Positions 33,643 through 33,720 of a stretch of 64,000 nt of DNA are shown piece by piece. The notes under the pieces were generated by a model. The model was given only the letters and a program-made list of their open reading frames with translations, was not told where the DNA came from and did not search any database. Origin of the DNA: Acidobacteriota bacterium (GTDB lineage Bacteria > Acidobacteriota > Blastocatellia > UBA7656); contig JBFMDH010000001.1 of NCBI GenBank assembly GCA_040754075.1, positions 166,262 to 230,261 of the forward strand, written 5' to 3'. Positions within the stretch are counted from its first letter, which is position 1; each line of letters opens with the position of its first letter. The position numbers were made by a program, and so were the translations under genes.

Positions 33643-33720
33643 TATTGGTCACTGGTCATTGGTCATTTGTAGAAGGCTTGACAAATCACTAATGACAAAG
33701 GACAACTGACGAATGACTAA
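33643..33720. repeat. Inverted heptamer arrays (ATTGGTC/ACTGGTC)x3 ... (TGACnAA)x4, STRR2-like TTGGTCA motif
   Basis: gttattggtcactggtcattggtcatttg ... tgacaaaggacaactgacgaatgactaa. Confidence 0.7.

Follow-up and report, generated by a model that had tools for sequence, protein, structure and literature searches.

Heptamer repeat arrays of an Acidobacteriota genome as likely arms of stem-loop elements built like rRNA intervening sequences

Why does a 64,000-nucleotide stretch of an Acidobacteriota genome (contig JBFMDH010000001.1; hereafter the window) carry many tandem heptanucleotide arrays, and what is the hairpin that two of them form at positions 33640-33725? Most arrays of the window consist of an array and its own reverse complement, at widely differing distances, and the stems measure 20-45 bp. 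One such pair encloses a gene of the PF05635 family, annotated as '23S rRNA intervening-sequence protein' (IVP, also S23p). We propose, with a probability of about 0.6, that these repeats supply the two arms of stem-loop elements whose build is that of the intervening sequences (IVSs) of rRNA, with or without an IVP gene. A 7-nt-unit array and its reverse complement would pair into the stem. The loop would carry the IVP gene in the full form (1658-2152), and it would be short and empty in the common form (33640-33725, 36430-36501, 9596-9668, 60430-60545, 11381-11548 and 39645-39713).

Arrays were detected over the whole window with Tandem Repeats Finder (TRF) and an independent X-drop scan. 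TRF reported period-7 arrays starting at 1658, 2122, 11382, 11523, 25489, 27364, 28280, 33640, 33679, 36433, 36473, 39645, 39682, 49067, 55858 and 60514. The X-drop scan found 11 strict period-7 arrays, compared to a mean of 0.45 and a maximum of 2 in 20 dinucleotide-preserving shuffles. The same scan found no arrays with periods of 4-6, 8 or 10-13, two with a period of 9 and three with a period of 15; the sole other strong signal, period 14, is twice seven and mirrors period 7. At least seven unit families, not related to each other, occur within the 64 kb (at 1658 the CTGCCTA family appears as its reverse complement, CAGTAGG). On a crude gene map, intergenic DNA makes up about 12.5% of the window and holds every array except the one at 55853. 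Several families and non-coding placement, as in the short tandemly repeated repetitive (STRR) sequences of cyanobacteria, were therefore both found here. The window has a G+C content of about 50% and contains no tRNA, no rRNA and no Rfam match at gathering score. A first-pass annotation of this DNA had described several heptamer families, located in spacers and often arranged as inverted pairs forming hairpins; the two scans, the gene map, and the pair search with folding all bear this out. Period-7 arrays lie at all of its positions, with the exception of an 'ACGGAAC-type' element that proved in TRF to be an inverted repeat with a period of 9 (58955/59063). Its list was right in the positions given and lacked the arrays at 11523, 25489, 49067 and 55853 and the 5′ arm at 60430.

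The 5′ arm of the hairpin in question (33640-33671) reads GGTTATT GGTCACT GGTCATT GGTCATT TGT, an STRR2-like unit reported by TRF as four units of GGTCATT. After the loop, the 3′ side reads ACAAATC ACTAATG ACAAAGG ACAACTG ACGAATG ACTAATAA. The 3′ arm itself (33679-33725) is a degenerate (TGACnAA)n array, for which TRF gives six units of TGACAAA, and about 10 nt separate the arms. Two minus-strand VWA genes (33717-34709 and 32540-33619) are separated by a 97-nt spacer that the hairpin fills, and the 3′ arm overlaps the stop codon of the upstream gene. Because the orthologous VWA spacer in L001, another Blastocatellia-type genome, carries different, unrelated hairpins without heptamer arrays, the hairpin appears to be evolutionarily young or fast-changing. 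Units near the ATTGGTC/TGACAAA pair recur in a Desulfobacterales metagenome-assembled genome (MAG; L070) and in an Acidobacteria MAG (L011), and (GAC[C/T]AAT)8, the same unit as ATTGGTC, has been reported upstream of recO in Nostoc 7120. Together with its siblings, the hairpin most likely belongs to the IVS-type element class as a form without a gene.

The full form lies at 1658-2152. Here, two arrays (1658/2122) about 430 nt apart enclose a minus-strand gene (1729-2088) encoding a four-helix-bundle IVP of 119 aa. The open reading frame (ORF) matches PF05635 (1e-40), TIGR02436 'four helix bundle protein' and PDB entry 2GSC (Xanthomonas XCC0516; 3.8e-28), and is weakly Avd-like; an exact-sequence look-up of the protein returned no record. 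One arm, (CAGTAGG/CAGCMGG)n at 1658-1706, includes a 15-nt inner extension that also pairs, and the other, (ACTGCCT)n at 2112-2152, pairs with it in the sense RNA. When the sense RNA of 1640-2170 was folded, its ends paired into a stem of about 45 bp, and the whole cassette reached −169.5 kcal/mol (z = −6.1). The gene sits between asd (2151-3203) and the aspartate kinase gene (252-1652), all on the same strand. As in S23p-type IVSs, terminal inverted repeats thus enclose an ORF in a long stem, and the loop encodes a PF05635/TIGR02436 protein; such a protein is not encoded at 33640-33725 or in the other gene-less hairpins. The first-pass annotation had suggested a system of structured repeats. 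This idea overlooked that arrays are arms of PF05635 gene cassettes, and with it their tie to IVSs processed by RNase III.

To see whether this link holds more widely, we turned to 80 metagenome loci from soils, sediments and peat with relatives of the window IVP (56-73% identity), 77 of which were testable. Flanking arms were defined by an ungapped inverted match of at least 15, a lag-7 identity of at least 0.65 and a distance of at most 160 nt from the gene; 342 genes from the same loci, a Blastocatellia panel and the window served as controls. Inverted heptamer arms flank 54 of the 77 IVP genes, compared to 1 of the 342 other genes (Fisher p = 2.6e-48). The sole flanked control is not a real gene. 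Within 200 nt of the ends of IVP genes the array density is about 39 per 10 kb, compared to 1.9 elsewhere on the same contigs (about 20-fold). The arms typically comprise 4.4-4.9 units; about 42 nt lie between the upstream arm and the start codon, and about 26 nt between the stop codon and the downstream arm. The commonest units are AGTGGTC, AGTGGGC, AGTTGCC and GGCAGTA. The neighbours of these IVP genes are protein-coding genes, and the cassettes adjoin many different ones. Of 51 upstream neighbours, 48 share the strand of the IVP gene, which fits its expression by read-through from the host gene; downstream there is no bias (27 of 49, or 27 vs 22). Folding of 160-nt flanks with duplexfold was not discriminating, as shuffled flanks likewise gave large energies.

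The arms have a fixed order. Of 99 pairs less than 700 nt apart, 87 start with the G-rich arm and 6 with the C-rich arm, while distant pairs, formed by neighbours from different elements, are split 4:5. Because an inverted repeat reads alike from both strands, this order is a property of the element itself. For the same reason we rejected an apparent gene-relative polarity ('CAGT arm upstream, ACTG arm downstream'), the invariant being arm order. Other cargo in pairs more than 700 nt apart was also rejected: ordinary host genes lie there between two separate elements, and the '133-aa ORF' of L154 is implausible as a protein. The G-rich-arm-first geometry would be the outcome expected of templated repeat addition at both 3′ ends of a break. 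In addition, the distance between IVP proteins correlates with the distance between their units (Mantel r = 0.515, p ≤ 0.0005), with host phylogeny as a possible confounder, and the mean unit distance climbs from 0.2 to 2.95 substitutions with growing protein distance. From these comparisons, the IVP gene and its arms appear to be inherited together, with the unit constrained, unless host phylogeny confounds the pattern.

Individual arms of the window bear on how arrays may be resized. At 36430-36459 and 36473-36501, between an M16 peptidase gene and a metallo-beta-lactamase-fold gene, (ATGAGTG)x3.9 and (CTCATTA)x3.7 form a hairpin with a gap of 13 nt, 31 pairs and −46 kcal/mol. Each arm is 100% regular, yet they differ consistently by G/A in every unit. 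In the purB-purS spacer, the hairpin at 39645-39713 joins a (CGTAGTC)n 5′ arm to a (GACTCCA)x4.6 3′ arm starting at 39682; this 3′ arm is 100% regular and the only one expanded. Arrays are thus homogenised individually, arm by arm. Such behaviour is what one would expect if the arrays were neutral, slippage-prone simple-sequence repeats (the heptamer 'LSSR', or long simple sequence repeats, of Mrazek 2007), in which a 7-nt replicase step expands heptamers and hairpins are incidental. This polymerase-slippage account is already in the literature, and it agrees with the many unrelated units, with the lone arrays at 25489, 49067 and 55853, and with copy numbers that vary between near-identical contigs and between Coxiella strains (PMC4990558). 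Slippage alone, however, yields neither complementary partner arrays nor a fixed arm order (87 vs 6), and it leaves unexplained both why the arrays go with a single gene family (p about 1e-48, with a local enrichment of roughly 20-fold) and why unit and protein co-diverge. Array pairing and IVP association were far above permutation expectation in the data analysed. We therefore regard it as improbable as a full account; slippage does best as the process behind changes in arm length and does not explain the elements themselves.

The rRNA IVS to which we liken the elements was studied experimentally in Coxiella burnetii. Its 23S rRNA IVS contains an S23p (PF05635) ORF and a 28-bp terminal stem, with two or three tandem GACAGAT heptamers, depending on the strain, upstream of the ORF (PMC4990558). 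The 5′ site of RNase III was mapped at the first heptamer by rapid amplification of cDNA ends (RACE), and cleavage was obtained in vitro (PMC4990558). The same study cites RNase III excision of Leptospira and Salmonella IVSs and also names Leptospira, Brucella and Xanthomonas for S23p-type IVSs (PMC4990558). The window cassette has the same protein family and an enclosing stem, with the parts in the same order; its stem is about 45 bp long, compared to 28 bp in Coxiella. No promoter of its own is in evidence in either, and host transcription would be needed, as the 48 of 51 same-strand upstream neighbours indicate. Unlike the IVSs of 23S helices (9, 25 or 45), the window elements lie in spacers between protein genes, and most have no ORF.

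On this likeness, the elements would be transcribed within the host operon, and the hairpin at 33640 and its siblings in operon spacers are probably RNase III substrates, as judged by analogy with Coxiella. A cut would free the RNA of the loop and uncouple the cistrons on either side. Replication slippage would make the arrays grow and shrink, and the complementarity of the arms would persist by template switching between arms or by selection on the stem. Template switching in quasipalindromes is an established mechanism. A benefit to the host, as processing or stabilising sites, is possible.

Several observations weigh against this proposal. None of the 80 related IVP loci has a match to large-subunit (LSU) rRNA and the gene is never within rRNA (0/80), so that 'IVS' denotes an analogy of build and not of location. 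Arrays far outnumber IVP genes, with about nine elements and one such gene in the window and, in the Blastocatellia serS panel, about 24 arrays and none of the genes. A profile of 84 IVP sequences picked up no trace of the gene in any gene-less hairpin. Shared arm families suggest that the empty hairpins descend from cassettes: GGCAGTA occurs with cargo at 1658/2122 and without it at 60430/60508, and GCGGATT likewise at 27352/28278 and 11381/11520. Cutting of the window stems by RNase III is likewise an expectation, derived from the build shared with the Coxiella IVS. The hairpin at 33640 is stabler on the strand antisense to its flanking genes: RNA of the plus strand folds at −25.9 kcal/mol (z = −4.4, with 0/200 shuffles equally good) and that of the minus strand at −19.8 kcal/mol (z = −2.65). 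About 11% of arm positions are mismatched, with 55 G.U and 57 A.C mismatches. Because there is no excess of G.U over A.C, selection on arms as one RNA strand is not visible, and the complementarity of the arms is not simply kept by such selection. Finally, the three lone arrays at 25489, 49067 and 55853 misfit a stem-loop model.

The classical hosts of heptamer repeats are cyanobacteria. The units that Mazel et al. reportedly named STRR1, STRR2 and STRR3 in 1990 are CCCCAGT, TTGGTCA and CAACAGT. The unit of the 33640 array had been equated with STRR2 in the first-pass annotation; ATTGGTC is indeed a rotation of TTGGTCA, which we take to be the STRR2 described by Mazel et al. None of the other families in the window corresponds to STRR1, STRR2 or STRR3. 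Like STRR sequences, the window arrays are tandem heptamers of several families per genome and are intergenic. In the literature searched, STRR sequences are treated as fingerprinting markers or possible regulators, without an associated gene. We compared the window IVP protein with 72,556 plasmids by tblastn and obtained matches in 29 records, nearly all from heterocystous cyanobacteria (Nostoc 11, Calothrix 4, Trichormus 2, and Anabaena, Scytonema, Aulosira and Fischerella). Among the IVP genes inspected on plasmids of Nostoc, Anabaena, Calothrix and Trichormus, all six have an upstream heptamer array and four of the six a full complementary downstream array. Examples of such STRR-type arms are (GGGAGTA)8...(TCCCTAC)5, (GGGAACA)4...(TGTTCCC)7 and GGGTGTA...CTACACC. 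Because these plasmid genes carry heptamer arrays, the classical STRR hosts share the cassette architecture. On the Nostoc edaphicum plasmid pNe_5 (L161) the IVP gene and its arms are wedged between the genes for the two ribonucleotide reductase subunits, and on plasmid pANA02 of Anabaena sp. 90 (L162) between cas6 and cas4.

The window itself does not come from such a host. The SerS protein encoded at 28326-29609 (minus strand) is 81% identical to that of an unclassified Acidobacteriota MAG and 75% identical to that of a Blastocatellia MAG, and its next nine relatives (62-67%) are mostly from Blastocatellia/Pyrinomonadaceae MAGs. ORF207, a gene described below, encodes a protein 100% identical to one of an 'Acidobacteriota bacterium' MAG. 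These serS relatives and the exact protein match led us to reject a cyanobacterial origin of the window. The heterocystous setting evoked in the first-pass annotation therefore does not apply: unlike STRR hosts, this one belongs to the Acidobacteriota. A panel of serS loci served for comparison. Its eleven nearest members by serS (L001-L011) come mostly from Blastocatellia/Pyrinomonadaceae MAGs and have period-7 arrays at about 1.6 per 10 kb; the 69 other loci have about 0.3 per 10 kb, with local peaks in certain MAGs of Acidobacteriaceae, Vicinamibacterales and Desulfobacterota.

Five Blastocatellia-type genomes have a heptamer element in the spacer that directly follows serS: the window (27352-28323), L001 (6215-6420), L003 (11286-11675), L007 (7407-7574) and L008 (5424-5453). 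The units at this site differ by genome (GCGGATT, GTGAGCA, GGTGGTC and ACTGACC), so that the position is kept and the sequence turns over. This kept position bears on another explanation, namely that the hairpins are selected by the host as RNA structures at gene ends (factor-independent or factor-dependent terminators, pause sites or 3′ stabilisers that hold off exonucleases, like the REP/BIME sequences of Escherichia coli, that is, repetitive extragenic palindromes and bacterial interspersed mosaic elements) and that IVP genes insert there. The very stable stems and their placement in spacers directly past stop codons agree with it. A G-rich first arm on both strands is moreover said to be a general trait of terminator stems, a finding attributed to d'Aubenton Carafa in 1990. 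However, the window hairpins have no U-tract and none was caught by the terminator scan. We rejected intrinsic terminators as an identity for them: no heptamer hairpin in 27000-40500 came up as a terminator-like site, and T runs are missing from their tails. Several hairpins lie inside evident operons (nuoA-nuoB, asd-ask, the VWA genes and purB-purS), where termination would harm. The arms show no bias of G.U over A.C, and the L001 VWA spacer does with unrelated hairpins that have no heptamers. Per-element fold energies in the window do not track the strand of the flanking genes. Host selection on gene-end hairpins is on balance rather unlikely to be the explanation; it is also compatible with elements of IVS build, and the two are not exclusive.

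The serS site of the window holds cargo of another kind. Its arms, (ATTGCGG)x3.7 at 27352-27389 and (CAATCCG)n at 28278-28323, are about 890 nt apart and enclose ORF207 (27493-28116, minus strand), which has a weak GIY-YIG-like N-terminus (Pfam E = 0.035). Homologues were found as 17 proteins or clusters, with Blastocatellia and Acidobacteriota as the only names given. They occur in four other contexts, none with flanking arrays, and the neighbourhood differs in each genome examined, which suggests that ORF207 is a mobile gene. At the serS site of L001 we found a gene-less hairpin with degenerate GCGGATT-type arms, whose right boundary is alignable with the window and which lacks ORF207. With homologues outside arrays and a hairpin without the ORF, we rejected ORF207 as a second regular cargo; to judge from the aligned sites, it is probably a later (secondary) insertion into an older hairpin. 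Just upstream of ORF207 within the GCGGATT cassette lies a pair of 18-nt boxes, AAAGACCGnTTnCTCAAC (28177-28236, minus strand). A second pair occupies the convergent spacer after a HIT gene (61086-61129, plus strand). The spacing within pairs is 24-26 nt, and the four matches compare with 0.03 expected. These boxes could be an operator or another small repeat family.

Two cassettes of the AGTGGGA family occur in L091 (3960-4420 and 6359-6956), separated by 2.3 kb and sharing 79% identity across 430 nt; the upstream arm of the second is about 170 nt from its gene. The pair indicates that IVP cassettes can duplicate as units. L101, L091, L112 and L113 are near-identical contigs with a common IVP cassette and upstream flank (L101 1089-1184); in L101 the similarity of the downstream flank breaks off precisely where the 3′ arm ends on its outer side, and in L091 the 3′ arm has 12 extra nucleotides (1.7 units) relative to the near-identical contigs. 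In L082, an IVP cassette (2069-2425) lies 2.2 kb upstream of a 16S rRNA gene (4649-6209), on the same strand and outside the rRNA.

These features raise the question whether the elements are non-autonomous transposons like MITEs (miniature transposable elements with inverted repeats), with the arrays as terminal inverted repeats and a transposase elsewhere (a REP-associated tyrosine transposase (RAYT), one like those of IS200/IS605, or another). The inverted arms, the several copies per family per genome, the varying cargo (IVP, ORF207 or none), the many host genes beside IVP cassettes, the two diverged L091 cassettes and the switch of the L101 flank at the arm edge are all in line with this idea. 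But Pfam scans of the main ORFs of the window revealed no transposase, integrase or reverse transcriptase, and the cassettes hold none either. Unlike transposase binding sites, the arms differ among themselves in both length and unit, and no target-site duplication came to light, although no systematic search for one was made. A MITE-like nature is thus very unlikely. The elements do resemble REP/BIME sequences and the REPIN-RAYT system (REPINs being REP doublets that form hairpins) in that palindromic intergenic elements outnumber one protein gene, itself flanked by inverted copies, in that families are genome-specific, and in their location within operons. They differ in that the IVP is a small four-helix bundle (Avd-like) without known catalytic activity and not a Y1 transposase, and in that the arms are tandem arrays of variable length and not a fixed REP sequence. 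Membership in REP/BIME-RAYT was rejected, since the window's main ORFs contain no transposase in Pfam scans and the flanked gene encodes a four-helix bundle.

Heptamer arrays have also been studied in Xanthomonas, where about 186 intergenic GGGAATC arrays per genome include about 70 convergent inverted pairs (Rehm et al. 2015, PMC4692102). They are mostly transcribed, and their length varies between species while the array type is kept (PMC4692102). The window arrays resemble these and the GGGGA(C/T)T arrays of Nostoc in being intergenic and in forming convergent inverted pairs. Xanthomonas campestris encodes XCC0516, the crystallised IVP homologue; an S23p/IVP link is not mentioned in PMC4692102. 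The Xanthomonas and Nostoc units contain G-tracts and were read as G-quadruplex formers (PMC4692102), whereas most window units have none. G-quadruplex heptamers, which need four or more tracts of at least three G in tandem units, were rejected for the window, as GGTCATT, GCGGATT, GAGTGAT, GGCAGTA, GACTCCA and CCGTAGT lack a GGG tract.

Three arrays of the window have no partner arm. A (TTTTAAC)n array (25489-25534) lies in the 64-nt spacer upstream of lpxC, a TTTTTAA-type array (49067-49091) ends at the start codon of ORF 49092, and a (CGGTAGC)n array (55853-55882) overlaps the last codons of ORF 52551-55877. The first two, directly upstream of start codons, are reminiscent of the TAACTGA arrays of Beggiatoaceae, which have 2-6 units, are intergenic and occur also in Cyanobacteria and Bacteroidetes (MacGregor 2015, PMC4679880). 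TAACTGA arrays lie a few nucleotides upstream of start codons, a likeness limited to these two lone arrays; they have one dominant unit and are nearly all direct, with one inverted in 170 (PMC4679880). Arrays beside start codons could be bound by a regulator that recognises their sequence and acts on translation or transcription, as has been proposed for TAACTGA and, in Nostoc, for the heptamers that lie upstream of recF and recO. For the window as a whole this is highly improbable: at least seven unrelated units in 64 kb are too many for one sequence-specific binder, most arrays are paired and placed past stop codons, and the A/T-rich lone arrays are oppositely oriented relative to their downstream genes.

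The remaining paired elements of the window are gene-less. At 9596-9668, short CCGTAGT/ACTACGG arms (with a CCGTAGT-type run from 9611) form a hairpin with a gap of about 18 nt and −29 kcal/mol. A hairpin of the GGCAGTA family has its 5′ arm at 60430-60460 (GGCAACC GGCAACA GGCGATA GGCAGTT) and its 3′ arm at 60508-60545 (ACTGTCT GCTGTCT ACTGCCT ACTGCCT), with a loop of about 50 nt. In the nuoA-nuoB spacer, an (ATTGCGG)n 5′ arm (11381-11402) and a (CAATCCG)n 3′ arm (11520-11548) are 117-128 nt apart with no ORF between them. A long imperfect palindrome at 34850-34975 (−58 kcal/mol) is made of GCGGAT/ATCCGC words at an irregular spacing of 8-9 nt and, by its words, looks like a degenerate relative of the GCGGATT family; a second GCGGAT-word palindrome at 48830-48940 is alignable with it. 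The inverted repeat with the 9-nt period (58955-59095; CGGAACAAA / TTTGTTCCG) has a similar build and is not heptameric.

Among the genes of the window are the housekeeping genes asd, the aspartate kinase gene, nuoA, nuoB, lpxC, serS, purB/S/Q/L and aroA, a run of VWA (Bat-like) genes and three genes for ClpB-like ATPases. The latter are tandem paralogues at 49092-58950 encoding ClpB/Clp-like AAA+ ATPases of 1100, 1108 and 768 aa (AAA_2 + ClpB_D2-small), with a 218-aa ORF without Pfam match between the second and third. A gene of the TumE toxin family (41210-41632) is wedged between the purQ-region genes and purL, and a DUF3368 (PIN-like) gene with a small upstream partner ORF lies at 45720-46542; both probably represent toxin-antitoxin genes inserted among housekeeping genes. 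Two ORFs contain 2.5-2.6 copies of a tandem repeat with a period of 24 nt, probably coding repeats: 13560-13622 in ORF 13337-13696 and 23605-23665 in the TonB-like ORF 22943-24232.

Part of this picture was already known, namely heptamer arrays including the inverted pairs of Xanthomonas, the S23p-type IVS of Coxiella with its heptamers, and the STRR sequences of cyanobacteria. In the literature searched, beyond the Coxiella note, we found no general statement that PF05635 genes lie between inverted heptamer arrays across phyla, and none of STRR-type arrays as IVS-type elements outside rRNA, although other sources may hold them. As far as the searchable literature goes, the link between heptamer arrays and IVP across phyla may be new. 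It joins two puzzles. STRR sequences have served for more than 30 years as fingerprinting markers of cyanobacteria and were rediscovered in Xanthomonas, Beggiatoaceae and Bacteroidetes without an associated gene or an accepted function. The '23S rRNA intervening-sequence protein' family is widespread and has no known role (PMC4990558). In Acidobacteriota of soils and sediments and on cyanobacterial plasmids, the PF05635 gene is mostly embedded between inverted heptamer arrays, and the one relative studied experimentally, the Coxiella IVS, is cut by RNase III at its repeats (PMC4990558). The cyanobacterial STRR repeats thereby gain a candidate partner gene.

What the IVP does with the arrays can be addressed tentatively. 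Because the typical array has 4-5 units, the crystallised IVP homologue is a pentamer, and unit and protein diverge together, the IVP might be a trans-acting partner that recognises tandem heptamers on RNA or single-stranded DNA, one unit per subunit, with the empty hairpins as non-autonomous members. We hold this idea with low confidence. By analogy with RAYT/REPIN, the IVP gene with its arms may then be the autonomous form of one selfish system. If so, STRR sequences, the GGGAATC arrays of Xanthomonas, the acidobacterial arrays and S23p-type IVSs would be one phenomenon. The likeness of the hairpins to the Coxiella IVS further suggests that many operons in these bacteria may carry built-in double-stranded RNA processing sites.

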